A DNA stretch of 64,000 nt from Raillietiella orientalis (taxonomy: Eukaryota), in assembly GCA_036172245.1 (NCBI GenBank), contig JAYWIR010000054.1, forward strand, positions 744,001-808,000, in the 5' to 3' direction. Of the stretch, positions 9,480 through 55,498 are shown in pieces. Each line of letters opens with the position of its first letter. Positions within the stretch are counted from its first letter, which is position 1. The position numbers and the translations under genes were made by a program. The notes beneath the pieces are model-generated. The model was not told the origin of the DNA and searched no databases. It was given only the letters and a program-made list of their open reading frames with translations.

Positions 9480-9735
9480 TAACTATAGCTTCCTGCGGAT
9501 AGCTTTGAGGTGGCCCAACCTGGAAGAACGCTGTGATCTCACACCCGGGTATGCAGGGGCGCTACAGGAAATCCATGGAGCCGATGGCCCACCAATTCCA
9601 ATTGTTACACTAGAAAGAAGGAAGGGCCGGAGTGGTCCATCATGTTCACGAAGGGGAAGAGGGATGAAACAAAAATATAAAATGAAAACAAACTACAACA
9701 AACAGCAAAACAAAAACAAACAAAGAAAGAAAAAA
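9480..9735 (+). mobile_element. Second LINE 3' end, a tandem diverged copy of 9283-9470
   Basis: The pattern gaagaa.gctgtgat.tcacacc...attccaatt.ttacact.gaaa...ggaagagg is repeated, followed by an A-rich tract. Confidence 0.6.
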
Positions 9736-11300: not shown

Positions 11301-11597
11301 CTTCTTCCGCTGTAATCGGAATGAGATATTGCATCCGCGCCGTATTGCTGGAGTCAGAAAGGCTGAGGAAGGGCGGAGAAGAAAGGCCACCAGCATGGCA
11401 GCAGCAGCCTTCATGAAGACAGCAGGAAAGTGGCCTTATCTGCCAGAAGTCTGCAAGGAGATCGCCAGAATTCAGAGCCGCTTTTAGAAGGAAAGGAACG
11501 TCTTATACCAAAGACCCCTGTTCCCACCTTCCCGTCCTTTATTTATTCATTTATTGTCTCTTCCCTCCGTTCTTTACTTTCTAGAAGAAGGCCTGCG

Positions 11598-12380
11598 TGC
11601 CGGTGGTTATCTAGATGAATTCTCTTTTTTTTATAAATTTCTCTTTTTTTGAGGGCATACCTTTCCCCTCTAACTGGTAGTTCATTTTTTTGGTTTTGCA
11701 TAAACGTCCCGGTGTAACCGGGTTCGAACCTCGGCTGCGCACTTGTCCAGAGATGCTGGCAAAGCGTGGGTGCATACAGACGATTCCGCACCGGGTCTTC
11801 AAGCGGAAGACGAAAAGCGCATTCAACAGGACAAGAACAGTGACAGGTGCGTGGCAAGTCTTCCCTACAGGGCAAAACAGGACCTCGTTTTCCCGTTCAA
11901 GAGACTGGGGAGGTTTCCTTGCCTTGTGATATCTACAGGGCAAAACAGTTAGTGAGCACCTTCCTCCAGAAATCAGCGAAGTTATCTCGTGGGGGATGTT
12001 CAAAGAGGTGAGCAGCAGGCTCCATTGTGACAAGGTGGCCTGCTCACTGAGCACAGCTTGAGGCAAAGGCCCGGTGTTCTATGAGAAGGCACCCCCGTCG
12101 AACTGCGGTCCTTTTTGCCAGCGTTTAATATTTTCCTTGTTGGCCCAAACCAGGACGTCCTTACGGGGTGAAGTGAAAAAAACTGATGACTCAGAGAAAC
12201 CCACTGAACGAGGGAGGTTCCGTCTCGAGTCAGGACAGCTCTTTGAGATCCCACGACCTCATGCTGTCAGGCTGCAGAGCGGCAAGCAATTCCGGAAGAG
12301 TTGGCGAGACGCGAGCACCTCTAAACATTTATTTCTACCATGATGCTGAAGAAATACGTAGAACGATGTAGAAGAGCTTG
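11598..12380 (-). mobile_element. LINE-like 3' fragment; terminal module also at 1412-1530 and 13355-13470
   Basis: Minus-strand ORF remnant 11611-12066. TGCCGGTGGTTATC(N)YAGRTGAA is shared by three loci. Confidence 0.5.
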
Positions 12381-33339: not shown

Positions 33340-33478
33340 CTTCACGCAGCGGTGCCTGTTCAAATCGAACGAGCAGTGCACGAAAGGATTCATGCAAGAG
33401 TTGGCACAAGCGAACAAGAACAAGGATTTTTGGATTCTTTGGTCCAGAGAGTGATAGGATTCAGAATCGACCCAGAAC
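33340..33478 (-). CDS. AKHR: AKH/RPCH-type receptor coding exon 6 (ECL3, TM7), after a ~12.4-kb intron
   Basis: Acceptor ataattttag completes W (TG/G) in phase 2. Translates FWVDSESYHSLDQRIQKSLFLFACANSCMNPFVHCSFDLNRHRCVK. The DQRIQKxLFLFACxNSCMNP motif is characteristic of AKH receptors. Donor GTAAGC at 33339. Confidence 0.93.
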
Positions 33479-33519
33479 CTAAAATTATCATTTTCTTATG
33501 AAGACATACTTTTGGCTTT

Positions 33520-35570
33520 CTTTCAGTTCCAATTTTTTTCGAAAAAAAAAAAAAACATTCTCGTCGGTTGCGAAACTCGACTGACGCCAGCAGTGCCGCA
33601 TGCTGATGCCAAGGATCGTTTTCATGACGCAATCATGCAGGCAATCACGGATCGACAAAATTCGCTTCCCATGCGCAGGTTGCGGAAGTTTTGCCCATGG
33701 TTTATAGCAGGGCTTCGTATGCCCCCCTACCGGTGTTCCGAAGCGTCTATGTGGACGGGAAACCGGAACCTTGAGCTCTCGACTCGGGAAGAAACGTGGT
33801 GCTGGCGACCAGAGAGAATGGTGCCGTGGTGGGCAAGAGGTGCAAGACTTGCCGATGTCAGTAGCTCGAAAATCCCGGAGCCTTGCAGAGGAAAGCCGTA
33901 TCCCCGGGAGGGATTTCAGAAAGCGTGGAAGTGTGGAGGCAAATGTCGAGGATTGGCTCTCCACTTCTCCTCCAAAGCTGTGCGCATCACTATGGAGTGC
34001 AATCGTGTTAGGACTTGGATCCTGGGACTCGATCAATGATGAATTACCAGGAAAATTGAAAAATTCCCTAGAATGAAGCGGGACAAATTGGAAAGGAAAT
34101 TGTTTTTTCTAGCAAACAGAAAGCTATGGAGGAGAGCAAGTGTTTCTTGACAAGGGAAGTATGCTTGGAACCGTTTTGTGAAGACACATTGAAGAACGTG
34201 GAAAGAAGCATTGAATGAGCGGCTCGCAGTCGTGGTCCCTATTGCCGCAAGCACAGTTTCATCGAAAACCTAATCTTAATCCAGTACCTTCGGCTCGTCG
34301 GTCCGAATCAGATGTCGAAAATTATGCCATGTCGAGATAATTCGTTCCACTTTTCAGGATGTTTAAACTCTCGGTCGTACGTCATGCAATGGAAAATTCT
34401 TCTTCAATCTTCAACCGAACGCGAAACCAAGGATGACGCCGATCATGTTTCAAAACAACGTTATTGGCTATGCTTCCAAAGGTGACTACAAGTTCGTCAA
34501 CTGCAGCATCTCCTTTTCATGGAAAGAAGATGACATTTTCTGTAAAAGCGTCACCTAAACTCCGCAACATCACTCCAGAAATCGTTGCGCTCGAACTTCT
34601 GGGCATCTACCACAGTATTTCAAAGTGCCTCATTTAGCATTCCTATTCCGAGCCTCCTTCAGTTCAGAGGGCGAAGGAAAAGAGCTACTCGAACAAGAAC
34701 TTGTATGATGAAACTGAATGCTCGGGTTCCATAGATTTCTTTTCGTCCTCACTCACAGTACTGATATAGATGAGACAATGAAGGAAGTCCGGAGGGGTAT
34801 GGGATTAGAACTTCGAAGTCTGCAACTGATTCTTGGAGCGTCTCAGTAGAAAGGATGAAATGGGATGCCTTATACAACGAGAGGCTTTACAGCTCATAAG
34901 AAGTTAAAATCAGTCCGAGCATCAGTTCCCTTATCTGAGGTGCGAGGTGCGAAAAGGCTGTGGTTCGAGTGCTTCAGCTTCGAAGGATGAGAACTTCACG
35001 TAGCTAAAGAAGGCAGATTTCTCTTGACTCTTTTCATCTCGTGCATTAGGATGCATTAATGAACGTCAGAGAGTTGGAATTCACCTTTTCGGAAGATCAA
35101 GTATCCAGTAATAAAAAATGGTCACCGGACACAAAACTAGTAAAGTCTTCTTTTTTGTGTGTTGGAGGCAAATTTTAGACGATTCCTTTCCAATGAGTTT
35201 TGTTTTGATGAGAACTCACTTTCGTATCACCTTGACTCATCAAAACTGTCCTTAGCAGGAAACAAAGTATTTTTCCGAGGTAAGAATATCCAACTTCGTC
35301 TTTGAACAGAAGAAAAAGAAAAATAACTCTTCAATAACAAAGGGAGTCGACTCCTTTCGTTCATAGTTTTTCGATCTTATGTGGAAGCTGAAGCCGAAAG
35401 TGGAGCGGAACGAATCAAGAATAATTTTCCCAAGGAACAGGACTTTCCATTTCGAAGACACAGAAGACAACAAGGTGAACAAAGATTGAGGTACGGAGAC
35501 CTGGATCTAGAAAAGGTAATCAAAAAGGCAGAGAAATCTTTGCCCAGCCACACGGTGCCATATTAACTTG
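33520..35570 (+). mobile_element. Decayed LINE fragment (APE to RT start) in intron 5
   Basis: RITMECNRV, ERLAVV and LEKVIKKAEKSLP (KSPG-like), with many stops. Confidence 0.35.
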
Positions 35571-36227
35571 AGGGTTACCCTGAGCCCATCAAATGCCTGC
35601 ATTGGAATCAGTTATGGATGTTACTTTGAATGAATGGCCAAGGCACGAATTCAACTGAAGGGTGATAAAATTTAATGCTGCTATCTGATGCCACTGTAAC
35701 ATCGGAAAGATAAAGCTGAATGAAATGGAGCCACACGAAGCTTCAGATAAGAGCATATCGTGAACAGATTCTCCTCTGCATGAAACTGCACGATGGCCAA
35801 GATATCCACTTGGTGGACCACGCGGAGATTTAAAACCTCTAGGCAAATTATCGGAGAAAGCAATCGGAGACTCTGAAATAACTTTGTTTGGAATCATGTC
35901 TGTGATAATTTCAACCAGTTTCAATTTCATCAAAATGGGAATAGAGGAATGGATAAATTAGTGCTCTCAAAAGCATAATAGCAAGCAGGAAATGATCTAT
36001 GGGAGGACTTTGATACGGTAGTGCTTATGGGAACTATGTATGAAAAGTAGGAAGAGCAGCTGACGCTGGTGTTGCACCTCTATAGCATCAAAACCATCAT
36101 CAGCCTTATCCAGGTGCGAGCGGCTTAAAACGGTCTGGGAGAAGTTTTCCTTTTGTCTATCTTATGCATTGCAGTCTACTTTTCCTCTCAAGGTCAGGTC
36201 TCAGAAAGGCCTCTTTCAGGTCTCTCC

Positions 36228-39200
36228 CCGTGTGTTTTTAGATCGCATTGTTGGACGCCGTGCTGATCGCGCAGTCTGATTCGAGGAGGGTCGCGCATTG
36301 TTGGCCTCCATGTCGGTCGCGCGGGCTGACGTCACGACGCGCCCTGTGCTGTTCACGGGGCGTGCTTTTTCGAACACCGCGAATGCTGCCGTTCGAAAGC
36401 AGCGAGGCTCTCAAGTCGGCCTTGGATAAGGAAGGCACTGGCAGTCTGTCTACACGAAGCAAAGAAAATTTCCAGCTTGCAGTTTTCCCGCAACAAAAAA
36501 ACCGGCACGCTACGTTTCGCTGCAAAGCCAGATCTGAGGCGGGCAAGAATGCAAATTCTGTCCACTTTGTTCTTTTGACTAATGATGCTTCCACTTCGGA
36601 TCGAAAGCAGCGGGGAAAATGACCGTGGAAACATGGATCACGGATTTCCTTCAGTTTGGAGAGTGTGCCACAGGGCGGCTTATCACGATGACTGCCAGCC
36701 TTAGATGATTGGATTTGCATCAGTGTTGCAGATCGTGCCGTGATTACCAACACGTAAGCTTCGACTCCAGGGAATATGTAAGTCTCTGGTCTCCCAAGGA
36801 GTTGCAAAGAATGCATGAAAAACATCGCCAGGGAGACTGATGGATCCTTCGTGATGGAGAACCGTAGTGCACAGAACCAGAAGGTGAACACGTCTCGAAA
36901 TGTGCATCCAGGAAAGACAGAAATATTGCATCTGAATTCGTTTTCTTGGACGTCCTGCATTAGACTTAGAAGAGAAAACACTATCATAAGAACCTCTGAC
37001 GCTGCAAAACGAAGTCCAGTCGAGTAGATTCTGTACAGCAGCCAAACTTTCGGCTATCGAGACTGCGGGTTCGAATTCCGGCAGAGAATCATTGCGACAA
37101 AGACTTCTGGACCTAGTCATACAGGGAAGAACACCTCTTGCTATCCATGTTCCTTTCCTTTGAACGCGCATTCCTCATCCGACAACGGAGAACCTAGACG
37201 AAGAGTGGAAAGAGCTGCGGGAAAAGAAAAACCCTCACTTTCATTTCAGGGATCTTCTTTCGATGGACGTAAATCTACGTCACCTTCGACTGCCCTTCCT
37301 TTAGAGAAACGTACGAAAGGTCATTTCGAGATCTTGAGGGCATTCCAGTTTCTCCTTCCGAGGGGATACGACTGCCCATAGCACTCCTCAAAAGGACGAG
37401 TGAAGGACATCAAAAGGACATTGGAAGGAGTTGCGAAGTGCTCTTGGTTCAACTATTCTCGCCTATTTCTTCCGGCTCTCGCCCCTACTGAGATAAAGCA
37501 GTCCATTTTACTCAAGATAGCCAGATCTTCTCGTTCGGTTTTCTCAGAGATTCTCGGATGATCTTTAATTGGATCTCATTTTTTGGTCTTTTCTTCGTAT
37601 CGTTTCTCCTCGTCTGAGAACGCTTGGCTTGAGAACGCCGGTTCCATCTGGATGTAGGAATACTTCCCGTAGAGCAGGTAGCTGAGGGTGGAGTGATCTG
37701 CGGAGGCTTCGAAAGCGATGGAGGTCAAAGAAACCAAGGAAAGAAATCAGGTATCTCATCCTGGCTGGAGCAGAGACTGGAAACGCCATCATGGTTTTGA
37801 GAGTTCCTTCCTGACTGCTATTTATGCCGGGCATTTCTCAGGTGCGCAGCTGAGGGAGAAGTCCGGGAGAAGCAAGAAACCACAACTCGTGAATCGTCTT
37901 TGGGTTTCTCCTTGCAAGAGTCGAAGAGGGTCGCCGCCTCTCTGGCTTGAGCTTCTTTTGTGCCTTCTCCCCTACTCGTTCGAAAAGCTGACTCACATTC
38001 GATCCCAAGGGACCCAAAGCAAGCGGTTCGGGCGACAGAAGTGCAGCAGACCACAAAAATTTTCTGGTTGCCAGCCAGAGTGGACATCTGAATATCAAAA
38101 GTACTGTTTGTTGCTGCCAAAATCTGTAACCCGCAAATACCTACGCAAAGTCCAAAAAGCACCCATCACCCACCTCAACCTATCCACATCCTTTTCCATA
38201 AATATCGCAATCCTGAAACTACACTTTCATTTGTGGTTTCCTGTACCAGTGAGATGATAGCAAGCAGCAAGAGAGCACATGAGCTAATGAAACCGTTGCA
38301 GCTATTTAAAGTGACTCCAGTTAGCGGTATGCTAGGTATAACGACTCATGAAATGAAGACGCCCTTCGGAAGTCCCCAGTGACCTTGGACAATCATACAT
38401 ACACTCAAGGAAGGCTTCCTGAAGGAATGGTGAATTTTTTCAGTAAAATGAAACCACTGACGAAATAGTAGGAAATTCACCGTCAGTGCTGCCTGTGACT
38501 GCTGATGCCTTTTCCAGTGGGATTATGATAGACCAAGGAGGTACGTGCGTTCCCACAGTAAGAAAGTCATCAGCTCATCAACCCATGCTACAAGCTTTCA
38601 AAAGACAAATGCGCTCGTAGGGATCGCAACGTCCGCTATATCAATTCTAAATGACTTTAAAAAGCATTCTGAAGATTATAAGGGCTCACTTCTCAAAATG
38701 ACGAACGTCTTCCATCCCCATCCCTTCTTGAAAGTGGCAGACTAGAACATGCAGAAGTGGAGCTGCTCATTTAAAAGTTTGTTATGGCTGCAAACTTTTA
38801 AATGTTTCTGTTTGTTTAAAAACGGCTTAACATTGACGTTACAAATGATGAACAATTTGTCTTCCACTTCCTTTTCCTTGCATTTCCTACGGCTGTGTAT
38901 AATTCAGCCTACTGAGAGATGCTTTATTCTTTAGCAATTGCCTGCTCTTAAGAGCCGTCACATTATTCTTCCTGAGCTAAGATTAAGGTGAAACTAAAAT
39001 GAAGTCCGTGAAGCTTACAGCTGGAGAACAAAAAGGAATTCAAGACTTATATCGAGTATCAATTTTTCGCTTCCATTTCCTCTAATCGCGGCTTGCTCCT
39101 CACCATGTTCGCATCCTCTGTATGCAAACTCTACCAAAACCGCTTCTTTTGCTTAAGCTCTCAAACCCCGCTGTCAGTTTTGCTGTCAAGTCCGAACTCC

Positions 39201-39400
39201 GTTGGAAAGAGCAATGAGCTCCCGTGCGCCTTTCGTATGCTCCAGAAATGTTTACCTCCAAATTTTTGATGACTTACACGCACGATTATCATTAGTAAGA
39301 GGATTGCGGTCATATAAAACGCAGCCAGACCAGTACACTCCCATCCACTTAAGAGGCTGTCCCTGGCATGTGACGTCACAGAGAGCTAGTCAGCACGGTG
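36228..39400 (+). mobile_element. Decayed LINE with 5' monomer, ORF1, APE and RT remnants in intron 5
   Basis: 5' monomer homologous to 16475-16670, then VSGLPRSCKEC (ORF1), TAIYAG (APE) and SAISILNDFKK (RPISLLNxDYK-like). Confidence 0.55.
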
Positions 39401-40896
39401 TGAAAGGAACACAACCGTTTCTTTCATCAAGCAACAAGTCATGAAACGTCTCGTGTTCAGTCGAGTTCGTGTTGAGCTATTTCCTTCTACCTTCGTTCAG
39501 TGTCAATAGCAGCGCCATCGACGCAGAGTCCAAGCAGAACACCGGTGCTGTTCTCAAAGGCCTTTCGTCTAACACCATGGAAGCGAATCAGCAAAGAATA
39601 CTTGATCATCGATGTGTGCGCGTGCTCACCATGCGGCTGTTGGATCCTTAAGGTCACTGGCTGAGGGATTCATCCAGAGTGCTGTGACGCTCTCTCTGAC
39701 CTGATCCGAGCGCTCCAGATCAGCACAGAATCCCAGTGCAAATGATAGGAATGCAGCAGCGCCGCGGTGCAACCACGAAACGTCCGGTTGCTCGCTCCAG
39801 TTGGCACCTCCTGCGCGCGGCAGAGGACTGGTGTGTTTCGGCTGAGAACTCGAAGAGATTGCACCTTCGCGATCTTGATTTCTGTAGTAACCACCGGCAC
39901 GATCGTTCGTGCCTTATTCATGCTTCGCAGCTCTCTGCTGCGGCCTTCAAATGGCTTGCCGCTCGCTCTTGTCCTTCCTCTCCTTTCGACTTGCTCTCCG
40001 AGAGCTGAACGTCCGGAAGCGCGGCGGGCAGGTGAATCGCCTCTCTCCGTAGGCTGTGGACGATGACATCCGTCGATGTGTTCCGATGGCAACCAGCATA
40101 CGGTACAGCAGCTTCCCACGGTGCGGATTTTTCGGTTTCCAGTTTTTCTTGACTGTCCTGTCTGTTCCCCGCACCGAGGACAGGAGAAGGTTGCGACCGG
40201 ACGTTGTCCTAACGTCCGGCGGAATCGGGCGACTCCCGAGACGGCGGAGGGAGTTTCTTTGGTTTCTTCTGCAGCTCCGCATCGCGTCTCGTGTGCCGAT
40301 CTTGTTGAGAATTTCGGGAATCTGCCATGCGTTCTTCGATGCGTGGGGATGATGTCCATTGCCGTGGTCCCTTGTTCCGTCCTGAACAAGTAGAGAGAGT
40401 CTTCGACGTGGTCCACGAGAAGAGATATCTTTCTATAAACTGCTTTTTTTTTGCTGTAAGTGCATATTAACTTTCATCGAGCATTCCGAGGAGCCTGTAA
40501 TGAAAATCAAGCAGTCTCAGGGTGACTGTGAGAATGCCCCCAAACGGCACATGGAAGAGCTCAAAACATTGTCGGTGCAGAGAGACTGCACTAAAATGGG
40601 ACCACTTAGCAGTACGTGACTATGGATGCACTTTTAGATTCACTTATCGGTTTTGGGGGAAATTTTCATATCTGGCGATCAGCTTGAGCACTATCGCAGT
40701 TTCTTGAAGATGGAGTCTGTGGAGCACCAACACGTTTCGTGCTGGGGGAGCGGTGAAATCCAGCCGGTATTTCCATAGCTCTCTGGGACCGCTTTTCCTC
40801 TGCCTGAGTCTCTGTGTCCTGGTGAGGACACCTGCCTGTCTTTTGGTTATCGAGGGAAGCAAGCCGAAGGAATAGAAGTTATCATCAGATGCGACA

Positions 40897-41016
40897 AATG
40901 TTAATGCATATATATATATGTAACATATACATTAACATTAAATTCATAAATTGATGCTGTATATATATATGCTAATTAATTGATGCTATATATATATATA
41001 TATAGCATCAATTAAT
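40897..41016. repeat. (TA)n microsatellites within a perfect 42-bp palindrome and a second hairpin
   Basis: 40975-41016 is ATTAATTGATGC(TA)9GCATCAATTAAT. There is also a 10-bp inverted repeat at 40897-40906/40930-40939. Confidence 0.95.
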
Positions 41017-41385
41017 GTATCCATCTATGCGCATAAGAACGTACATTCTCGGATCCGTGAGTTTGAAGTGCATCTCTTGGAACACCTTTAAAAAAAAGAC
41101 AGCATGGTTTTATCTAATCGCCAGATACACAAAGAGATTCCAAATGGACCGTGGAAACATTCAGGTTTGCCCCTCTCATAACGGATTCATTCAGCACGTG
41201 GAAAAACCACACGGATGCGAGCAACATCAAGAGGAATGAGGTATCATGTGAGAGAGCATATCTAAAGAGCGACAGGGCTTCCCACTTGAGGCGACATGGA
41301 GGACATGTCAAGGGGCACATGTGACTGTGGTTCCTCGAGCATTAAGGAGGCACGTACGAACGCGTTTCATGGAAGAATCGAGAAT

Positions 41386-41733
41386 TTAGTCGAAAGATCC
41401 AGTAGAAGGAAGTGAATGGAAAATTGACTGCAAACTTTGAAGATTAGAAAACGTGAAGAGAACAGGAAGAAAGAGTAAGGATGTCATAGTAGGGTTGAAT
41501 GGAAAGTGGAAACTACACGAGGAGACAATCCAGTGAAGCTTGCCATAGTCGGAAAAGCAATGAAGTGTGTTTGACACGTAGTATTTGGGGTGAAATGAGG
41601 ATTTCAGGGAGAGAAGCGGAGGTCTCACAGGCAAAGTGCAAGAGCAGAGTAGATTAACAGAGGAGCGGTTGGTAGAGTTCGGGCAAACAGCGACAGCGAG
41701 TGGATGTGGCCAATGAAAATCGAAGATATTCAT
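41386..41733 (-). mobile_element. Possible CR1/L2/Daphne-type LINE 3' end
   Basis: SFHFPFNPT...LPVLFTFSNLQSLQS resembles the SFFP.T...WN.LP...NL..FK terminal motif. Confidence 0.35.
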
Positions 41734-42604
41734 CTGCGTGTAAGTAGCTGGTTAATTGCATACCATTTACGTATCTACCGATGATAATCATATCTACTGA
41801 TGTACTTATTTATTGGTGTAGCGTCTCATCTACTGCGACATATCAGTCAACGGCCACTGATTTTCGTATGACGAAATTCAACCGGTTGCCATACTTGATG
41901 ACACAGCGGCAATAACAAGAAGTCCACTGGTACCACTACTCACATCTGTTTTTCTTGCTGATTCATTGAATTTGCGACCATCCACTTATCTGTTCCATCT
42001 GCGAGGAATCCTCGATTTCTTATTCTCTTTCTTGATCTAATTTTGCCTCTTTGGCACACTGTGTAGGCCGGGACGATTCCATCACTCACAGAAATAAACG
42101 CAATCTGTGCTCCAAGTTTCCTTAGGGCGTGTATTCAAGAAGATTTTGATTGCTTCCTGTACCAGAATGAGCTGGGACAGCATTCCCAGCTCAACTTCGT
42201 AAATGCTTATTCCCTCTCTATTCTGAAGACCTGAAGAATCATTGCATATTCCATGCACATTTAGTTTGTCCACCTTTTGGCCAATCAGATGAAGAGCTTT
42301 CTTACTCATAGATGTCTGCGGGAGTTCCGAATTGTAGGTGAAGCCTCTCGGCAGATGAAGTTTAATTCTCGCATTATTCGGACCCGAGTGAAGACTCCAG
42401 GACTTGGTAAGGCTGGGTAGGTGACACAAGATTCAGGATAAGAGATGGGTTGTTGGGTTCTGTGATTCATCTGCGGATCAAGAGGGCTGTCCAAGGTAGG
42501 TGGTGGGAGTTGTGATAACTTCCAGTCAACGCATCCCCAGAAGATTCTCGAAACTGCTTCAGTATTCTGTGCCTCGGAGTGAAGGGGAAGCTATCATAGA
42601 AATC

Positions 42605-43285
42605 CTTTTGGATCCCGTTTTCTCTGCTTTCCTTCTAGCTTTTTGTTTTCGGGTATCTTCTTTTATTTTCGGCTTGCTAAGTACTCCACAGCCGTTCGTC
42701 CTTGCTAGAGGCACACGAAGCTCTGTAAATTGTCCACGCCACCCGGGGCTGCATGTCACTCTTCTTCAAGTTAAAGGAAGCACCACGAAAGGGGAACAGC
42801 CTATAAATCCAAGAAGGCTATGGTGGAAAAGGATTTTTATCCTCTTACACTTGAAGGGAACCTGGAAAGTATCCGTTCCCTGCTTCCTTCTCTCAAGAGA
42901 GCCCAATTTCTCTGAAGGGCGCTCCCCAAAGGGAGCAGCGCGCTTCATGCACTCGGGAGAGACAACCCCCTCTGGGGATGTCAACCAACTTCATAAAACG
43001 GCTCAATTTTTACAAACGGATGGAAACCCCGAGGGTCCTTGTTTCCTGGAAGGACCCCGGAAGGTCAACACCCGATTCTGATCAGTGGACTGGTGCATTC
43101 GGGGACTTCCGGATTCCACCAATGCTGCATTCAAATAGGCCAACCAGCGTCATCTTGTGGGGGAGACTCGAAATCCATGAGGCACCTCCCATCGCTGAGC
43201 GTCGATCTTTCCCCGGGAGGAATCCGAGCTAGCAATGCCCGGTGTCACCCGCGGAGACCGCGGCCACACGGCCTCCAGGAATCGG
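42605..43285 (-). repeat. Same dispersed repeat family, copy F (receptor intron 5)
   Basis: Core ccaaccagcgtcatc at 43140-43154; body and A-rich tail homologous to copies A and C. Confidence 0.6.
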
Positions 43286-43899
43286 ACGTTTCGAGTTCAG
43301 ATCCCACCCGGGGAAAGATCGACACCTAAAGATGGAAGGTGTGCTTCTACTAGTTCTCTGCTGAAGTCTTGTACGAATCTTTTGCTTTTTTTTCTCCAGT
43401 CATCTGCGAAGTGGCAAGCAGAAGGAAATAGCAAACGAATAGGCTATCTTCGTTTTGACGGCAGAGAAGTTCCAGCATTCGTCCCAGAGCACCAGGGAGG
43501 GAACGGTGCTCTCCTACACACGCTTCTCTAGGAAGATCTACCGGTGGCATGAGATGGAGCACCAGCCGTGATGAAGGGGACAGCAACACAACAAAGATGA
43601 TGATGAAGCATCTCTTGGAGACTAGTTGAACCTCCTGACACGTCATTCGTGAACGCAGACACGAGCAAATAAATGAGTTGTTCGATCATATTCAACAGAG
43701 GTTGCAGCGGCAAAGAGAACAGCAAGATTGACTAAAGTTTGCAAGTTTTGACTGTCGACGATTTGTTCTAATCCTGTTGAGGAAATGAGCTGTTTTTTGG
43801 GAAGCCAATATAGGATCGTAGAATAACAGAAGATTCCAGGAGCAATAATATAAGATTTCATCTTTTTGTCAGGTTTCTCTTCTTTCTCTTTTTGTTCTC

Positions 43900-45200
43900 T
43901 TATCCTCCCCAGTCTTTCTCTTATCGTAAAAGCTGTGCAGGCGTACCAAAGAGGTACCCTTCTTGCTTGACGAACTCACTGGGGAAACAGCCCCGAGGTC
44001 TGACGTCAGTGTCCATTCATTGGAGAATGGAGCGGTTCTTCGGAAAGGACCCGTCCTGGTACTGGCATCAGCATCCGAGGGCGAGCTAAACATTCTGACC
44101 CAAGGGATGCACACTGTTGATGTCGTGGGCATCTTTCATGATACCTGGGTGGGGCCCTGCCCTTAAGCCCACGCACCCGTGGCAATGCCACGTGCCACGG
44201 GCATCTCGGACGCACTTGGCTGGAGAACTTGAATTTTCTCATCTGGAAGCGCATTCCAGTTGGAGCGAATCCCTCGGAAGGAAAAGACAGGCCAGGTAAC
44301 AAGAAATGCATGCTATCGATTAAGAGAAGTTTTGCAAGATCAAGAGAACATGGAAATTCCACGCAAGGTTGGCTTTACGAAGATTTCTTCTGATAAAACA
44401 GGTGTGCAGTATGTAAAGAAAAACATATCATCCCCTTGATACGAATGATTTTGCCATGGACCGGATCTTCATGTCTGATTACCTGGCGAGACGTGAGCGT
44501 ACTGAGTAATGAAGTCTAAGAAATGTTTGGAAAGTTGTTGCCTGGATTATGGAAACTGGCAGACCAATTTCAGCATGACTGGTTTCTCTGCAGGACAAAA
44601 AGGGAATTGCCAGGAGAAACCAATGAATAAAGCCTCGAGCAGCATATGAGAATAGGAAACGAAGGTCCATGGAAGAACCTGTGAGTGCCCTTGCTCGTTA
44701 AAGATTTCTTTACACAAAGGGAGACGCTGGTGGGGAAAACAGGAAAAAAAGAAAAAGAAAGGGAATAGCTTTGACGGGAAGCATCAATTTGTCCGGGAGC
44801 ATTTCTTGTGAGATATCTTCTTAGAGCGGAAAGAAAAAGAAGCCATCAGTGTCGGCAAGTCTCTGCACGTAGAAACTGCAAGCTTCCGAAAATTACATGG
44901 GATTACTTTTGACCATACCTCTGGAAAACTATGGATGAGAAGATGAATGTAAAAATCGGAATCGTTTAATGATCACTTCCCTGACTGAAACTTGCTTAAT
45001 TACTTTTGAGCTAATGTTTTCTTGAAGAAAACACTTCCACAACGTTGGAAACTAATGTTCACTGGCCCCAAGTACTAATTCTAAAAGTAGAAATCCGTCT
45101 CAGGTCAGCGAAATCGTCCATCGAAAATGCTCTCTTGTTCTCTTAGTAGCTGTTGTCCCTCCCCTTGTGCAAAAGATTCCACAGAGGAGGAGTCGTAAAA
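43900..45200 (+). mobile_element. Decayed LINE RT fragment in intron 5
   Basis: TGETAPRSD (GKAPGxDG-like), SAFQLERI and LQDQEN (LDQEKAF-like) occur in order. Confidence 0.45.
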
Positions 45201-45835
45201 ACTTGTTGCATGTTAGAATGCCATCCGTTCTGGCATAGGGCGGATTAATGATCCGTTGATTTGTGTGAGAGCAATTGGTCCTGCTTCGTGATCTGCTTCG
45301 TGATCATTTTCGTGGCAAACCGACAGAAAATCACCATGGACAGCACCGAAACAAGCACAGGGAAACGTGAAATTCCGATCTTTAACTGTAGAAAGCCTCG
45401 AGAAGGCTTTCAGGATTGGGTTCCCCTCAGAGAAGCTCCAGGCTTGGCGTTCAAACAGTTACTTCCGGAAAAAAGAAAATTCGGTGTAATCTCAAAAAGA
45501 CATTTTTCCTCTATAGAGATTTCTCATTGGTGCTTGTCTGATAGCGAAACAAAGAAAACCTCTCTTGAACATATCAATATTCAAAATTCCTGTCTTTCCA
45601 TGGTAACCATGGTGTGAAGTTGTAAGTTTCGTATGGGATTCCATTTCGCTTCCGTAGACGGTAACGGCCCGGCGTTCAGCTCGAACAGTTCGTTTCTTAG
45701 GAAACGCACGAAGCTTGAAAGATTGGGAAGCTCCGCGTGAAGCGGAAGGGCTCGAGCCCTCCTTCCTCATCTGCGCCCTCCGCGGGAGTTTTCCTCCGTT
45801 CTCTTTTTCATCCGCGGAGCGAGCCGTGCACTCAC

Positions 45836-45956
45836 CAAATGGAGATGACGTGGTAGGGCGTCCAACAAATCACAAACACCAACAAAATCACAACCGTCAT
45901 CTTCAGGGTCTTCGCCCTTGCTCTCCCGAAGTTGCATTTGCTGCTTCGAAGGAACC
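45836..45956 (-). CDS. AKHR: AKH/RPCH-type receptor coding exon 5 (ICL3, TM6)
   Basis: Acceptor ctctgcgtttcag, donor GTGAGT, 121 nt. Translates GFLRSSKCNFGRARAKTLKMTVVILLVFVICWTPYHVISIW, with the RAxxKTLKMT and CWTPY motifs. Confidence 0.95.
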
Positions 45957-46069
45957 CTGAAACGCAGAGCGTTCCCGTTTTAAAGTTTCTCGCGCCAGCG
46001 ATAAGTAACGCTGCGCCGCCATCGAGCACGCGAAAGAAAGAAAAGCTGATTCAGAGGCAACCTCTCTAC

Positions 46070-46283
46070 CTTTGTTGCGGATGCCCTTCCTCGATTTGGA
46101 GAAAATTTTTATCATCACAGCGATCCAGCTTATAACAAGAACAATGAGCGGCAATCCGTACATCACCATCATGCCGAAAACGGCGTACAGCAGCTCGAGG
46201 GCTGGGGATGGGAAGGAGTTGAACGTGACGCACTGCTCGTACCACGGATACTTGGGATGGCGCTCTACGTGAAAGATGAACAT
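46070..46283 (-). CDS. AKHR: AKH/RPCH-type receptor coding exon 4 (ECL2, TM5)
   Basis: Acceptor gtgttttgcag, donor GTAGAG, 214 nt. Translates MFIFHVERHPKYPWYEQCVTFNSFPSPALELLYAVFGMMVMYGLPLIVLVISWIAVMIKIFSKSRKGIRNK. The IFH..HP....QCVTF motif is typical of AKH/ACP receptors. Confidence 0.95.
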
Positions 46284-46299: not shown

Positions 46300-48200
46300 T
46301 TTATGTCGATGGGGATACACCGAAGGACAGACAGGTGCATCCTTCCCCACTTTGAGAAACCCACGCTGTGCTTCCTTCGCTCCCGGTCGAGCTTGCGCCG
46401 AAGAGGACCTCGGTTCAAGTGGAAGGACGACGGCGCGGAAACGGTAGCCGGCCTTGGTCTTAGCTCCTGGAAGCTTCCGGAGGCTGCGCCAATGATCGAG
46501 AGCGCGAGAAGGAGCGAGCAGCGCGAAGAAGACACGCTCACGCTTGCGCCTCAGCAGACGGAAAGGGTTCCTTTTATTGCAATTGGCCAGGAATAGGGTG
46601 AGAGCCCGCTGGCATCTTTCGAAATGATGACGACGACGGTGACTGCTGAGGGCGGAGGAACTTTGGAACCCTAGGCCTTTGACCCCGTGGAGTTCAGCGT
46701 GCTCCTGGGAACGGAAGCCGGACCCCGTCCAGCTCAGTCACTACCACTTCTCAGAAAATCGTTTCGGGCCAGGCCTTGGAGGGCATGGAACCTCTCTTGG
46801 AGACAGCGGTTGCCGGCTCGCTCTTTTTGTCCACTTCTTCCTGGCCAGGTAGGCGAGGTCCGGTTCCCAGAGATGCCTCGCGGTGGACGCAAGCATCACT
46901 GAAATCAGAGCAGAGAATCTAACGCCTCTAGCGACGCGAAGGATCACAGATCAGGCAGGATGTCCGACGGGTCGCGCAGCCAGGTGGCGTCCGAGCGGCA
47001 GACTGCTCTGTGTCGCGCGGTTCGTCGCTTCCGGAGATGCTATGGCGGAGCACAGGGAGCAGCTTGCCCGGGGGCTGAGAGATGGTCCACCTCTTGGCGG
47101 CGCTGATACGGTGCTGCTCACTGAGCTGACCTCTATGCTCTCCTCCTCACCGCCGAGAACAATCTCCAAACAAAAGCGGCTCATTTCCTCGTTAGAGGAG
47201 GTAAGCGAGAACGAAGAGGGGTCTTTGGGTCAACCGAGTCGCAATTCCACCAGACAGGCAGCAAGAGAATATGAAAAAAAGGACATACACATGTAATCCA
47301 AGAGCTTCACCTGCGGTGCGCTGCACACTGCAGATATTATCCAGGATCCCCATAGAGACCAGCGCCACCTCGAGGAAGAGTGGATGTTTCTGAGAGGACA
47401 ATATATGGCGAAGCATCTAAAAAGACAGGGAAAAGGATCATCTTCCGGAGAGCTCAGGAACCTCCCGATGGACGCAAGCCCCGCTTTCTCTTGGCCCCCC
47501 GATGACCTCTCAGCTGCCTCCCTTCCTGCTCCACCGGCCAAGTTCTCCTCCATCTTTTCTCAGCCTCGGGATGAAGTTTGCTCCCCCGGCAACGCCGTCA
47601 GATCAAGGGAACCTCCGAAGCAGCCACGACTGATGTTTTGCTTCCGCTCGAGATGACCATCGGCCCTGCACTGAGGCTGAGGTGCGACCGCAACCTTCTT
47701 TTTAGGCGCGGACCATCTTGCGAACACCAACGCACCTCTCGCAAGCGACGGAAAAGGAGAACTTCAGGAGAGAATGTGTATCGAAAGTTGCCATAGCTTC
47801 CAGGGGCGCTGCGAGTGTTCAAACTTCCTTGGTGCAGTCGTAAACGAAAGCTGCGTCCCCCCACATGCAAGACTGCCCCGGTCATAAGGGCCAAGGATAA
47901 AGAGTCGGTAACCGGGTTAACGCTCAGCCGGGTGCTCTATCTCGTGCCGGTGGAAGGGAGGTCCATCCACTGCCTCCAGGAGGCTCTAGGAGGATCGCAA
48001 TAGCGACAAGTAGAGAAACGCGAGATCTTTTCCCGGCGACAGAAGGAAGGAGTAGCAGCTGAGAGGAGGGAGGGGATTCCCGGAACGCACTCCAGATCCG
48101 AGAGAACACATCGTCTTCGTCCTCTCCTCCTTCATGTCCTACCCAGTGGTTCATCGCAGGACCAGAGAGAGAAGCAGGGAAGGGGGCAATTGCATACAAG
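46300..48200 (-). mobile_element. Decayed LINE ORF2 remnants on both sides of receptor exon 3
   Basis: VGGRSF/PGSYG (APE-like) and EKAGLASIGRF lie upstream of exon 3. IATRL, RGGPSLSP, AYLA and KLDRERRKHSVGFSKW lie downstream. Confidence 0.45.
47311..47416 (-). CDS. AKHR: AKH/RPCH-type receptor coding exon 3 (ICL2, TM4)
   Basis: Acceptor ccctgtctttttag, donor GTGAAG, 106 nt. Translates (R)CFAIYCPLRNIHSSSRWRWSLWGSWIISAVCSAPQ and completes the DRC motif in phase. Confidence 0.93.
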
Positions 48201-48229
48201 AGAAACTCTCATAAAAACGTTTCTCCGGG

Positions 48230-48745
48230 TATCTCAAAAAGAAGAGAAAAAGAAGCAACAGCAATAATTGCGGCAGCAGCAGTGACAGTGTCAGCAGGAA
48301 GAGAAAAAAGATAAACATCAGCAGTTGACAAAGATGAGGAAGGAAGAGAATAATTGGCAACAGTAGCCTCAGAAAAAAAAAGAGAAGGGAAAAGAATCAA
48401 TAGCAACAGAGGACGACGAAAAAAAGAGAAGATAGTCAGCAACGGCAGCAGCAAGAGAGCATGGGAAAGGAGACGAAACAGCAGCAGAAGAGGAAGCAGA
48501 GGAATGTAAAATAGAACAAACATCAGCAGTAGACGGAGACGAAGGAGGAGAAGGACACTTGGCAATAGCTGCAGTAGCAGGAAAGGAAGAGAAGGTGGGA
48601 GAAACAGCTGTAGCAGCAGGAGACGAGGAAATAAAAAGAAGATAAACCGGGACAGAAGAAGAAGAGGTAGAAGAAAGATAATGAGCAGAATCAGAAGCAG
48701 GAAGAGAAAGAGAGAAATAAGATGAAGAAACAGAAGCGGATCAAC
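48230..48745 (+). repeat. Purine-rich low-complexity tract (degenerate GAA/CAG)
   Basis: Sequence is almost entirely A/G with scattered cagcag runs. Confidence 0.85.
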
Positions 48746-48929
48746 AACAACGGATCTCTGACACCAGCATTCGTCCTCAGCAGAGAGGACGGAGGCAGAA
48801 GCAGCATCAGAAATGGAAGCAGCACTATTGCTTCTGCTTCCCTTTCTGTTATCTCTTTCTCCAGTCCCGCTGTTGCAGTCCGTCGTCTCCTCTGCTAAGG
48901 ACGAATGTTGGTGCCAGAGATCCGTTGTT
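48746..48929. repeat. 40-bp inverted repeat (37/40 identical) with a 104-bp spacer in intron 2
   Basis: 48746-48785 matches the reverse complement of 48890-48929 with three transition mismatches. Confidence 0.92.
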
Positions 48930-51900
48930 TGTGCGCAGCAGTGTGACTAGACGGGTGCGTCTTCCTCCAAGGTTCAGCGACTCCTCCAGAAAGTTGAGCA
49001 AGGGAATCTTCCCGTTCGTGGAGGTGGATCCAAAGGAGCAGCGAAGGGTCCGAAACTGCACCCGCCGGACATCCCTGATCCTTGGACCTCGAGTGCAACT
49101 GTAAAGTCGTACCCTCTCCTTTTCGCGCTTCTCGAGCGCGCAAGGTTGCACCCGGAAGCATCGGTTCCCAGTTTCCGGAACGAGAGCTGCTCACCTGTCC
49201 AGGCTGATGCAAATGATGAGGAAGCTGGACACGTAGAGGCCGTAGATGCGAAAGAAAGCCATCACACGGCACATGGCCTCTCCCGCCCACCACGACACTG
49301 TCGCCGCCCAAGCGATCTCCAGAGGCATCATCAGGAATGTGACCTGAAAACCAAACAGCAAGGGTCACTTCTTGTGGCTGCGGTGGCAGCTCATGGAGAC
49401 AACGACAGAAAGGGAGCTCCTCCTTTCCTTCTGAGCTCCTTTTTCCTTCGGCAAGAAGGGGGAGCACGTGGTCCAAAGACCAGAAGAAGGGAAGAGTAGC
49501 AAAGGAGAGTCCGCGCGAATCGTGAGGATGCCTCAAACAGCCACCAGGGTGAGCGTACATCGGAGCGGGTGAGCACGGGGAGCGCTCCTGAGGTTCGAAG
49601 ACTCCCTTGGTTCCCTATGAGGGAAGCAGAAATGCCCTTTGGAGCACTCCCCTCCGTACGAACAGGACTGCATCTTCCACCATAATGCAGCAGCTGCGCC
49701 GGACAGTGCTTGCCTCCAGGACCGGACCGATCCCTGGTCTGTTTCTCCTGCAGCGGTCTCTCGCTCACTGCACCACCCGATGGAGATCGCTTAGGATTGT
49801 GTGTGCCCGCATGCAATAGACGGTGTGTGCGCCATTAAATCACGTGTCTTCATGCACACGAGACTGCGTGTGCTTAGGTGCGCAGGGCAGGGAGTACACG
49901 TGAGCAATAGGAATCGACATTTAGGTGACTCAGATCAGCACACACTGCCCCAGAATAGGTGCGGTGGTCCGATGCATTTCCAGACGGTCGTGACGGAGAC
50001 AGCAGTGGTGGAGAAGTCGTGTCTATCCCCTTCCGTCTCACGTCTGATCGTTGAGCTCAGCGACGAAATAGCACAAGTACCCCATCGCAGCTGGAGGTTC
50101 CCCATTCCTTCTTGCTCGCATCTGAGTGCCAACTTCCGTCACTCTGCCCTCGAAGCGGTCGCGCCAGATTGCGTTACCCTGAGCACCGGAACGAGTCTCA
50201 GCGATCCGCAATCACCCTTCGGTGCTTGCGGGTCGCTCGTTTCGGTGTCTGGCACTCCCTCTTTGCGTTCCTCTGAGGAGCCGCCATCCTGTCGGTTTTG
50301 TAACCCTCTCTGCAGAGCTAACGAACAGCGGTGCCGCGGTGGCATTGAACGCTCGAGGTCGGAGGGCGGCCGAACCTTTCAAGAAACAGAGGAAGACCCG
50401 TTGGCACGGTACGGGGAGAAACACAAGAGGCTGGAAGGTGGGAGAGCGGTCAGGAGAAGACTCAGTCACCGCCTTAGGGCTCTGTCGGGTAGCCACCTTG
50501 AGCGGAGAGCCTGATGGAAAATTCCCACTTCCTCCGTGGGATTGACAAACGCGTGTGAACCTGATGAGGGTACTGACACACTCTCTTTCTGCTCCTGGTT
50601 CGGTGACTCGCGGCGAGACCACAGATGCAGCGACGGCGACGAGGTATACCGTCGCGAGAGGTCGTACACGCGTCGATGAACCGGCACGGCATGGCAGGTG
50701 CGGCGCGCAGCGGAGCTCCCTGCTGGCTGGAATCGCCTTAGCGAATTCCTGCCCGGAAGGTTACCTAGGAAACAGTGAAGGGTAAGGGGTAAAGGGAGGA
50801 GGCAAGCGGAGCGCTTCGCCGCAGAGAGACCAATGCTTGACCTCATTCGGCCAACGATCCCATGGTGCAGCGTCTCCCACGCATGGCGCGGTGGTGACCG
50901 TTTTGAACCCGCTCCTCCACCTCCCGGAGGAGGGGTCGATGCCAAGCGTCTCCTCAGGCCATGGGAGGATGAGGAGACGCTTCTTCGGCATTGCTGGCGG
51001 CAGCCCAGCCGAGTTCCTCGAGCCGAAGAAAAGAGTGCCCGGGCCGGCACTCATCTCCTGTCCAAGATATACGGCTCGCGGTCCTCATCAGGCGAGGAGG
51101 AGGAGAAGGAATGAAAGAAGCATGAGAGAGCAAACCTCCTTCTTCCGAGTCCGCGAAGGAGGATGCCGTCCTCCTTCAACGAGAAAATCTTCCCCATCTG
51201 AGGACAAAGCGCGCATGGCCTCATCCCGTCGAAGGTCGCGTCGGATCATGTGGACGAGTCGTCTTTGATTTGCATTCCGGCTGCAGACTCCGCGCCTCCG
51301 GAGCGGAAGGAACGACCATTCAAGCGGGGTCCCCCACCAAGCAGAGTCACCTGGGAGACCTGACCAGCCGAAAGAGGTCAGGGTGAGGTCACGGTGAGGG
51401 AGGCTCCATTCCCGTTTGGCAACCTCGCTCTGACAAAGTGCAGCGCGGAGAGCGACACCGCACTGCCCAAGTGAACACGGCGGTGGACCGGGTTGGGGTC
51501 CACCCTTGTTTCTCCCCTTTCTGGCAAGACTCGATGTCTTAAAGCTTGTCCTTTCAGAGCTCCGCTGTCCTCTTCCCCATCTCAAGCGCAGCCAGAGAAA
51601 CCTCGAGGGAGTTGCATTTTTCCAATGTGGTTGGAGTCTTCATCGCGCGACCTATTCGTGCAAAAGGCTTGATACGGGATGCGAGTCGCCCAGGCGACGA
51701 GCGCGTTCCGGACCGCTACTCTCCTGTTGGCTGCCAGGTGAGTGAAACTACTCTCTCCGTGTGGTCCGTCTCGTCTCCGTGGAGACGGGAGACTATGTAC
51801 CCAGCTATTAAGCCTGAAGAGCACCAGAGGATTGAAGAAGGCAGAAGGTGCACTAGCGATGGCAATGGGCAGGGCGCCTTATAACGGAGAAACCTCAAGG
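48930..51900 (-). mobile_element. Decayed LINE ORF2 remnants on both sides of receptor exon 2
   Basis: CLVGDP (~51335), WDRWPNEVK (~50860) and GHTILSD (~49800) lie upstream of exon 2. SRSKDQGCP (RGVRQGCP-like, ~49075) lies downstream. Confidence 0.45.
49195..49343 (-). CDS. AKHR: AKH/RPCH-type receptor coding exon 2 (TM2-TM3)
   Basis: Acceptor tgtttggttttcag, donor GTGAGC, 149 nt. Translates VTFLMMPLEIAWAATVSWWAGEAMCRVMAFFRIYGLYVSSFLIICISLDR, with R split in phase 2. The ORF track does not show it in this frame. Confidence 0.95.
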
Positions 51901-52149
51901 AAAAGTGGCGTGAGGAAAGAGCAGGATGGTCTAGGCCACCTCTTCTTCCCAGCTTGCCCTCCCTGAGCAAGAACGAGGGTGACTGCACATCCCCACTGCA
52001 GTCCACTGTCTCCCTCTCTTTCTCCCTGTCGCGCTCATGCACCAACCGACGGGTCGCGTGTCACCCTAAACGTATCGGGATGAGGAAGCGAGAGCGGTAG
52101 CCCTGGAGATGGTGGTCGGCTTGGACACGAGCGCACGCAGCCCGAATTT

Positions 52150-53426: not shown

Positions 53427-53666
53427 CATGAGATCAGCCGCCGACAGATGAAGGAGCATCAGGTTCATCCTCGACAGTCCACAGTGAAACTTCATCCTCA
53501 GGAGCGTGAGGCTGACGTAGATGTTCCCAATGGCAGCCAGGATCATCATAACGCTGTACACGCTTATGGAGATGATATGACCGTCGTTGAACTTCATATC
53601 GACGGGGAATTCGAACGTCGAGTTCGGTTCCGCGTCGAGCGTATCGTTAATCCAGACTCCAAACAT
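53427..53666 (-). CDS. AKHR: AKH/RPCH-type receptor (GnRH-receptor superfamily GPCR), coding exon 1: N-terminus, TM1, start of TM2
   Basis: Translates MFGVWINDTLDAEPNSTFEFPVDMKFNDGHIISISVYSVMMILAAIGN...LLHLSAADLM. The DMxFNxGH..SI..YS motif is typical of AKH receptors. TM1 GN, TM2 LxxADL and two N-glycosylation sequons (NDT, NST) are present. Donor GTAGG at 53426 (phase 0). An upstream acceptor (ttgcag/G at 53715) suggests a 5' UTR intron. Confidence 0.93.
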
Positions 53667-53798: not shown

Positions 53799-55498
53799 AA
53801 ACGAAACGGTGGACGCGCTTAAACGCGTCCCTCCACGGGCAGACACGTTGCAAATCAGCAAATGCATTACTCAGATGTGTTCTCTTCGAAAGGGCGTTCG
53901 CCTCCTTTGCTCCCGTCATCCGAGGCGCTTCGCCCCAAACAACGTCACGATAGACGAACATCCGTCGAGTACGTCGCCGTCGACGCCCCGCCAGGGAGTG
54001 ACCGCGCGCCCCATTTGTTTGGTGCGTCCTGTCGGAAGGATTCGCATGCGAACACCCGCAGGAAGAACACGTCACGACAACGATGCGTTGCGACGGCCGA
54101 CTTCCGTCAGGTCACCCTCTCACGGGTTGCACGCAAGAGCAACGGAAGCGTTTCCCGCATGCCATCTCGGAGAATGTGCTCGAATCTCTGAAAATCATCG
54201 GTACTCGCGTGCACGTGCACGCTCGCACTTCGGTCGGCTGATTTCAATGACACGGTGCGCTCCCCAAATGGGCAGTCAGGGTTCGTACCCACAAATTGCC
54301 CCAAATTGCCAGCGTTTGCAGCGCGTCCAGCCGCGCTTCCGCGATTCCCGGCACTTCCCTGGAGATGCTGCCGAGAAACGGCGCTCGAGCAAGGGCTCGT
54401 TCGTCCGAGCTCTGCTCGGCGAAGCGCTTCGCTGAAGGTCGCCCAGACTGGGGTGGTCACGGGAACAAAAGGGTGCATAGGGAGGAGACGAGGTCAAGTA
54501 CGCTGTCTCGCGCGGGCGCCAAATAGAGAGGAAAAACCATTCGCGTCGTAGCTCGTCCGGAAGTGCATCCCTCCTTTCTGGGTGGAGGCTGCGAAGGTGG
54601 TTGCCTCGCACGAAAATAAGGTCACTCCGATCCTGAGAAACGCTCGAAACTGGAGAATGGTCGAATGATCGGAAGGCCAAAACCGCATCTCGTGCGAAGG
54701 TAGAGACCTCTTTTTCGTGCTGTCCCGTGGCGCTTGATGTCGGTACCCGACAGCGACCGGTGATGGAACCAGAGAGGTCAAGTTGGCACTTTGCCGTTTC
54801 TGATCGGAGCATTTGTCTGCTGTCTCTTCCTGCTGTCTTTCCTGCTGCAGATTTTTCTTCCAGAGGACGAGTCGGGAACGACTCTATGTGGCTTGAGGTG
54901 GTTTCTTTTCGATCGTGAAGAACTTGGCATGCTTATCATGAGGGCGTTTCGTTGGAGGGGCTTTCTGCGAGAGGTTCTCACGGATAGTGGGCCCAATCCG
55001 CGTGCTCGTCGGGAATCGCGCCCTGGGCAGTGAATGTTGAAAAAAGGTTGACTGGATCAGGTACTAAGTTCGTGGTTGCCGGACTCATGCCTTCCTTTTG
55101 TCCCGGATGTTTCGTGAAAGAGGTGATGAGTTCCGTCTGCGGAGAGTGATTCGCCGGAGGAGGAATGTGCTCGAGGGAGGAAATGCAATGAGGGCCTGCG
55201 CGTCCTTCTTTGCTGGCTTGTCCGTCCCACTTTGCTTTCCTCGCACGTAGGTCTGTCGCATCCAAGGCGTTCGCGCTGCCCGCTGTGAGACGGCGTGCTG
55301 TTTCTCGAGTGGGCACGCTGCTGCGGAGGCCCATTCGCGCGAGTGGCGCGGGGAGAAACGTATCCCCAAGGAATGAATGGTGGGAGTCGCTTAGCTGTTG
55401 AGTTTGCGAGAGCTTGGAGTCTTTGGCGCTTGGTATCGAATTTGCCGCGTGGTTTTTCTGCCTCTCCTTAAAACAGAGTTGGCGCACCGCCACTTCGC
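53799..55498 (-). repeat. 1.7-kb repeat, copy 2, ending ~85 bp from the acceptor of the receptor's first coding exon
   Basis: Reverse complement of 20730-22428 at ~99% identity. Confidence 0.97.

Follow-up and report, generated by a model that had tools for sequence, protein, structure and literature searches.

We examined a stretch of 64,000 nucleotides from Raillietiella orientalis (GenBank assembly GCA_036172245.1, contig JAYWIR010000054.1, positions 744,001 to 808,000 of the forward strand), to which we refer as the window. It contains a gene predicted to encode a receptor of the adipokinetic hormone (AKH)/red pigment-concentrating hormone (RPCH) kind, in which two tyrosines of the activation machinery have been replaced. 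All coordinates are those of the 64-kb window, and the codons of this minus-strand gene are given from high to low. The gene extends from 53666 to 33340 in six exons, which are listed here with the transmembrane helices (TM), the intracellular and extracellular loops (ICL and ECL) and the Ballesteros-Weinstein positions that they would carry; the profile positions and E-values refer to a family hidden Markov model (HMM) that was built from 121 members and run, with filters off, on all six-frame open reading frames (ORFs) of at least 12 residues in the window.

Exon 1, 53427..53666, minus strand: ATG, N-terminus with two N-x-S/T sites, TM1 (N1.50), ICL1 and the start of TM2 (LSAADL, D2.50); family HMM 30-97, E 4e-20.
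Exon 2, 49195..49343, minus strand: the remainder of TM2, ECL1 and TM3 to the D-R, the R codon being split with exon 3, and with C3.25 kept; family HMM 97-146, E 1e-28.
Exon 3, 47311..47416, minus strand: C3.51 (TGC, 47415-47413; DRY to DRC), ICL2 and TM4 (W4.50); family HMM 145-184, E 5e-6.
Exon 4, 46070..46283, minus strand: ECL2 (CVTFNSFPS motif, disulfide Cys), TM5 with P5.50 and W5.58 (TGG, 46127-46125), and the start of ICL3; family HMM 179-255, E 2e-28.
Exon 5, 45836..45956, minus strand: the end of ICL3 (KTLKMT) and TM6 with CWTPYH (H6.52, CAC, 45852-45850); family HMM 251-292, E 8e-18.
Exon 6, 33340..33478, minus strand: ECL3, TM7 with NPFVH (H7.53, CAC, 33378-33376) and C7.54 (TGC, 33375-33373), and the start of helix 8; family HMM 293-340, E 2e-16.

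Joined, the exons give 969 nt, or 323 codons, in frame and free of stops. AG...GT is present at each internal boundary, with pyrimidine-rich acceptors; the ATG is intact, as are the intron boundaries (10 of 10). The splice phases agree at 5/5 junctions, and each exon stops where the tblastn alignments to homologs stop. An earlier annotation made from the letters alone (hereafter the first-pass annotation) had described a frame intact across six exons with canonical splice sites, and this description was borne out. When four homologs were used as tblastn queries each exon was matched once, and the family HMM matched exactly six pieces, which tile profile positions 30-340, while the seventh-best match had an E-value of 0.4; there is therefore no second TM7 exon and no second copy of the receptor gene in the 64 kb. 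An alternative TM7 exon, including one lying inside intron 5, was considered and ruled out across the window by both methods. Intron 5 measures 12,357 bp and the other four introns 113-4,083 bp, and the window sequence contains no N. Exon 6 ends at a strong GT donor (AAG/GTAAGC), and the true 3' end would be reached either through a seventh exon or by a 57-codon read-through to the stop at 33169. The coding sequence (CDS) has a GC content of 0.72 at third codon positions (GC3) and of 0.51 overall. Two inverted copies of a 1.7-kb repeat, at 20730-22428 on the plus strand and 53799-55498 on the minus strand and 99.0% identical to each other, flank the receptor gene on either side; the repeat is probably young and interspersed, and its long ORFs gave no Pfam match.

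A search with exon 4 alone returned four matches, all arthropod proteins named as receptors for AKH/corazonin-related peptide (ACP) or as gonadotropin-releasing hormone (GnRH) receptor-like, at 58% identity or less. With the full-length centipede homolog (P0002) as query we obtained 487 relatives. The best 120 of them are mostly from insects, with others from Daphnia, bivalves, gastropods, a chiton, Owenia and Priapulus, and they include AKH receptors named as such by their sources (Apis, Locusta, Nasonia and others). In blastp the spliced protein was 50-55% identical to named insect AKH receptors over about 300 residues (E down to 1e-128), the top matches being either named AKH receptors or proteins auto-named as AKH, ACP or GnRH-II receptors; the automatic names at NCBI mix AKHR, ACPR and GnRHR. 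The anchors of class A are all present (N1.50, D2.50, R3.50, W4.50, P5.50, CWxP6.50, NP7.50 and the TM3-ECL2 disulfide), and exon 2, which is 76% identical to the Strigamia homolog, carries the C3.25 of a column that is Cys in 122/122 sequences. All full-length homologs carry the Pfam domain PF00001 (7tm_1); scanned exon by exon, this model gave 31.6 bits for exon 5 (cut-off 30.5), 28.1 for exon 2 and 15.1 for exon 4, with no match at E <= 1 for exons 1, 3 and 6 scanned singly.

Because of the 50-55% identity, the anchors and the two disulfide cysteines, the predicted product belongs to the G protein-coupled receptors of class A and, within the GnRH-receptor superfamily, to the AKH/RPCH/ACP branch, and the kinship with AKH/RPCH-type receptors reported in the first-pass annotation was upheld by the same identity and by the family HMM, which covers all six exons. 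The narrower AKH/RPCH subtype is putative, best-hit similarity being the one line of evidence for it and the trees containing no reliably labelled ACP or corazonin receptor references. In two quick maximum-likelihood trees the window protein lay on a basal long branch (support of 80-83 in the Shimodaira-Hasegawa-like approximate likelihood ratio test, SH-aLRT), outside every well-supported set.

We next set out the replaced residues, as seen in a MAFFT alignment of the window protein with 123 homologs. TM5 reads YGLPLIVLVISW (with flanks, MYGLPLIVLVISWIAV), TM6 reads VICWTPYHVISIW and TM7 reads NSCMNPFVHCSF, and at the codons assigned in the first-pass annotation to W5.58, H6.52 and H7.53 the reverse complement does read TGG, CAC and CAC. 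At 5.58, where the window protein has Trp, Tyr is found in 123/123 homologs and Trp in 0/123; at 7.53, where it has His, Tyr is found in 122/122 (with one gap) and His in 0/122. The homologs with these invariant tyrosines span insects, centipede, crustaceans, molluscs, an annelid and a priapulid. The loss of Y5.58 together with Y7.53, which had been called unusual from the sequence alone, is unique among the 122-123 relatives sampled.

The other two changes in activation motifs are of a different order. At 6.52 the homologs have Tyr in 102 cases, Asn in 7, Phe in 7, His in 4, Trp in 1 and Gln in 1, and CWTPYH occurs also in sawfly, braconid and weevil sequences; the Y6.52H that the first-pass annotation had counted as a notable change is therefore nothing out of the ordinary in this family. 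At 3.51 the window protein reads DRC, not DRY, and the homologs have Tyr in 111, Phe in 9 and Cys in 2, with DRCFA occurring also in a termite sequence. Human GnRH1R carries DRS, not DRY. W5.58 and H7.53 are truly exceptional, and H6.52 and C3.51 are ordinary family variation. The change at 3.51 had gone unremarked in the first-pass annotation, as had that at 7.54, where Cys replaces a Gly that is found in all 121 full-length homologs (Cys in 0/121).

The assignment of position numbers is anchored on solved structures. W5.58 aligns with the TM5 Tyr of the GnRH receptor construct 9u4y_R, which is the closest solved structure for the TM5 exon, and H7.53 aligns with Y323(7.53) of human GnRH1R (7br3_A), a member of the same superfamily and by sequence the closest solved structure for the TM7 exon (PDB 7BR3; PMC7576152). 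Among 148 newly fetched representatives, 10 had a residue other than Tyr at 5.58 or 7.53; these were short fragments or sequences without the flanking motif, and were set aside, by inspection only, as misaligned or mispredicted.

The losses of tyrosine are confined to the cytoplasmic side, and the pocket-side tyrosines are retained: four pocket-side columns that are at least 97% Tyr in the family (window residues 37, 198, 207 and 271) are all kept. Tyr content is 3.4% in the window protein, compared with a family median of 4.1%. We also considered a general loss of tyrosine; with 5/11 conserved Tyr columns changed versus 32/144 others (p = 0.13), this was not significant. The cytoplasmic face has gained a set of Cys and His residues, comprising C3.51, H7.53 and C7.54 together with an H and a C in helix 8. 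The string 'NPxxH' was absent from all of 8.4 million full texts searched, and literature searches, which were not a systematic survey of all class A receptors, listed no paper on an AKH-family receptor lacking Y5.58 and Y7.53; nor was anything relevant listed on AKH receptor paralogs in chelicerates and crustaceans. The kind of receptor is already known, and the combination of W5.58 with H7.53 is the new part.

Compared with the insect AKH receptors of Nasonia vitripennis (P0073), Apis mellifera (P0038) and Locusta migratoria (P0051) and their relatives, the window protein is alike in TM2 (LSAADL..VTFxMMPLEIAW), in ECL2 (CVTFNSFPS), in the CWTPY of TM6 and in the NSCMNP of TM7, and the similarity of its extracellular half looks arthropod-like. 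It differs from these receptors, and from the Daphnia, Strigamia, mollusc, Owenia and Priapulus relatives, in having W for Y5.58 and H-C for Y-G at 7.53-7.54. Exon 3, which encodes ICL2 and TM4, is the most divergent and least family-like of the six (22.6 bits, versus 57-97 for the other exons), and has RWRWSLWGSW where relatives have RRGK.ML..AW; its divergence is part of the putative intracellular remodelling discussed below.

How the divergence is distributed along the protein bears on whether the gene has been under selection. Sorted by conservation class, mismatches to the family consensus numbered 37/42 (0.88), 37/54, 31/57, 26/67 and finally 11/88 (0.12) in the class conserved at 95% or more, and a gradient of the same shape was seen in Daphnia, Strigamia, Priapulus, Owenia and the chiton. 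Divergence thus tracks family conservation, which indicates that for most of its history the gene would have been under purifying selection, and the gradient argues against long neutral decay. The divergence is also sided. Among columns with at least 80% consensus, 25/68 are changed in the intracellular half versus 12/87 in the extracellular half (Fisher p = 0.001). In the intracellular half the window protein ranks 1/122 (0.37; the next is 0.22 and the median 0.06), while in the extracellular, ligand-facing half it ranks 18/122 (0.14), a value also reached by ordinary members from insects, molluscs and annelids, and both disulfide Cys columns are conserved.

The open frame sets a further bound. 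About 3.6% of random base changes in the CDS create a stop, and under neutrality the probability of finding none is ~0.7 at 0.01 substitutions per site, ~0.5 at 0.02, 0.17 at 0.05, 0.03 at 0.10 and 0.001 at 0.20, so that the open frame limits the length of any neutral phase; the intact splice sites and the absence of a frameshift would shorten it further. Since going from Tyr (TAY) to Trp (TGG) requires two base changes, the loss of both tyrosines within a short neutral phase would seem improbable.

Given these observations, we favor the view that the gene encodes a functional, or until recently functional, receptor in which the ligand pocket has been kept and the activation and transducer core remodelled, and we put the probability of this at roughly one half. 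The ligand-binding half would be under ordinary purifying selection. It retains the glycosylation sites at the N-terminus, the disulfide between TM3 and ECL2, the motif of ECL2, the tyrosines of the pocket and CWTPY, so that the protein, if produced, would most likely still bind an AKH/RPCH-like peptide. The first-pass annotation had also offered a shift in ligand specificity; this suggestion found no support, since conservation of the extracellular half is at the level of ordinary family members.

The proposed remodelling concerns the cytoplasmic half. In class A receptors R3.50, Y5.58 and Y7.53 act together once the receptor is active, Y7.53 contacting Y5.58 directly or via water and Y5.58 holding R3.50 (PMC11484851, PMC7576152), and the two tyrosines are regarded as core parts of the common class A activation mechanism (PMC11484851). 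In the window protein Trp5.58 and His7.53 would take the place of this Tyr5.58-water-Tyr7.53 lock, which stabilises R3.50 in the active state, and would be accompanied by the cysteines at 3.51 and 7.54 and by changes in ICL2, in TM5 from 5.54 to 5.64 and in helix 8. Activation and transducer coupling may therefore differ from those of canonical AKH receptors, and two forms of the difference can be envisaged. In the first, the Trp, whose indole NH is a donor, and the imidazole of the His might pair through hydrogen bonds or stacking in place of the two tyrosines, with G-protein signalling preserved; in the second, signalling might be weakened or biased, for example through low efficacy, arrestin bias or behaviour as a ligand sink. 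The co-evolved receptor and the decoy or scavenger put forward in the first-pass annotation likewise stay at the level of inference.

Single departures from the tyrosine pair are on record in two peptide-hormone receptors, and each differs from the present case. Human GnRH1R, like the window protein, naturally lacks Tyr5.58 (Asn there, Trp here) and yet signals through Gq, and its signalling is lost when Tyr is placed at that position (PMC7576152). GnRH1R differs, however, in keeping Y7.53 (PMC7576152) and in having N2.50 and D7.49 swapped, where the window protein has D2.50 and N7.49. The endothelin B (ETB) receptor is a peptide-hormone class A receptor that naturally lacks Tyr7.53; with its NPxxL it couples to G proteins by a different movement of TM7, and L7.53Y impairs it (PMC11484851). 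In contrast to the window protein, it keeps Y5.58, which hydrogen-bonds to R3.50 (PMC11484851), and its 7.53 residue is a hydrophobic Leu and not His; nor is it a close relative.

Several observations weigh against the favored view. In each of the two trees the end branch of the window protein exceeds all others, at 1.92 and 1.9 versus medians of 0.34 and 0.55. Its 11/88 changes at near-invariant columns are the most of any sequence (the next has 6, and the median is 1) and could reflect relaxed constraint. The division into intracellular and extracellular halves was made by Ballesteros-Weinstein positions and was chosen after the data had been seen, and a weaker excess on the intracellular side is found in Daphnia and Palaemon too, so that part of the sidedness may stem from an insect-heavy consensus. 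In GnRH1R, Y7.53A abolishes activation and Y7.53F is partly active (PMC7576152), and by analogy H7.53 could be disabling. Finally, the upstream copy of the 1.7-kb repeat ends 132 bp before the ATG at 53666, where it could disturb the promoter or the 5' untranslated region.

The strongest competing explanation, which we regard as possible but rather unlikely, is that the gene is a recently silenced, still-open copy, a unitary or duplicate pseudogene in which the changes at the switch residues are early decay, following perhaps a duplication or the disappearance of the ligand system. The long end branch, the excess of near-invariant changes and the young repeat just upstream would all fit such a copy, as would the loss of both residues held essential for activation (PMC7576152, PMC11484851), and at neutral divergences of 0.01 to 0.02 substitutions per site an open frame would still be fairly likely. 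Neutral decay should, however, strike both halves of the protein alike, and the change rates and ranks of the two halves (p = 0.001; 1 and 18 of 122) are far from alike; moreover, 7 of the 11 near-invariant changes are conservative (L>M, D>E, F>Y, L>V, A>S, I>L and I>V). No stop, frameshift, lost start or lost splice site occurs in the 323 codons and 10 boundaries, GC3 stands at 0.72, and W5.58 would take a double base change within a single codon, an unlikely event at the low divergence that an open frame permits. The first-pass annotation had preferred altered coupling to a pseudogene; the gradient and the intracellular concentration of changes sustain that preference where the alternative is a long-dead pseudogene, and a recently silenced copy keeps the standing just described.

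A bolder form of the favored view is that the gene represents a working alternative to class A activation, in which a Trp/His pair stands in for the Tyr-Tyr lock together with the new Cys and His residues, while the pocket stays under selection; such a receptor might be gated by pH, redox or metal, or might be a dedicated AKH/RPCH sink or an arrestin-biased receptor. We consider this unlikely, and to ascribe pH, redox or metal sensitivity to the cytoplasmic His/Cys cluster would be pure speculation. Decoys and other atypical receptors of class A, the atypical chemokine receptors among them, keep the ligand-binding half and have altered transducer-side motifs. The window protein resembles them in this general pattern, and its altered 3.51, 5.58, 7.53 and 7.54 and changed intracellular half would be indirect evidence of such a receptor. 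It differs from these in keeping the D-R of DRY and the KTLKMT at the ICL3/TM6 junction, and there is no sequence kinship with them beyond class A. Were it indeed an AKH/RPCH sink or an arrestin-biased receptor, the AKH system would have its first described atypical receptor.

It is also conceivable, if a shade more doubtful, that the gene is an ordinary lineage-specific ortholog, that is, that the AKH/RPCH receptors of this lineage all carry W5.58 and H7.53 and signal normally via Gq or Gs, the apparent oddity being one of missing taxon sampling. Close relatives are indeed missing from the libraries searched. The best of the four exon 4 matches reached 58% identity; exon 6 gave no ortholog candidate; exon 1, searched against 1.84 billion representatives, gave 313 matches at E <= 0.001, of which the best 150 were at most 55% identical; and full-length relatives in the protein libraries searched did not exceed ~55%. 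Among metagenome contigs, 428 pattern matches for an ortholog yielded 0 confirmed, and the ESM Atlas, queried with exon 4, returned generic seven-TM fragments only. With no near neighbours in the libraries the branch is long partly for that reason, and long end branches are found in other lone lineages as well (Daphnia, 1.25-1.35; P0158, 1.16-1.27). A single non-Tyr residue at 5.58 or 7.53 is, as noted, compatible with signalling in GnRH1R and in the ETB receptor (PMC7576152, PMC11484851). Against an ordinary ortholog, none of the 122-123 sequences, from insects to priapulid, departs from Tyr at either site, and the intracellular half is changed far more than in any sampled relative.

That the replacements are an artefact, whether from assembly or base errors or from a faulty gene model that has taken in exon 6, 12.4 kb downstream, from a fragmentary or other copy, is very improbable, for although intron 5 is far longer than the others, the changed Tyr codons are four separate ones altered by substitution and not by indel, the phases and exon ends fit throughout, there is one TM7-like ORF only in the 64 kb, and the window is free of N.

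From receptors that naturally lack one of Y5.58 and Y7.53 (GnRH1R, NTS1R and ETBR) it has been learned, in each case, that the active state can be stabilised in another way. One lacking both, in a family that is otherwise invariant at these positions, would be a natural experiment on whether the Tyr-water-Tyr lock can be replaced, and would bear as well on whether a non-canonical or decoy receptor exists in the energy-mobilising AKH/RPCH hormone system. The case rests on a single sequence, and if this is a freshly silenced copy the gene is an ordinary one.

As to the surroundings of the receptor gene, we found no other recognisable genes in the 64 kb (0 matches in Rfam, 0 tRNAs, and 0 Pfam matches in 24 long ORFs of 162-322 aa), and Tandem Repeats Finder (TRF) detected no tandem repeats in 30000-57000. 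A direct repeat pair of ~1.1 kb lies at 15-1111 and 9734-10818, with 95.7% identity between the copies and a weaker continuation at 1191-1446 and 11378-11631 (81%); its ORFs gave no Pfam match. Within intron 2 of the receptor gene, at ~48200-48950, there is a strongly strand-skewed stretch of low complexity that gives rise to long pseudo-ORFs rich in Leu/Phe or in Glu/Lys/Arg, and the AT skew in 48001-52000 is 0.169.

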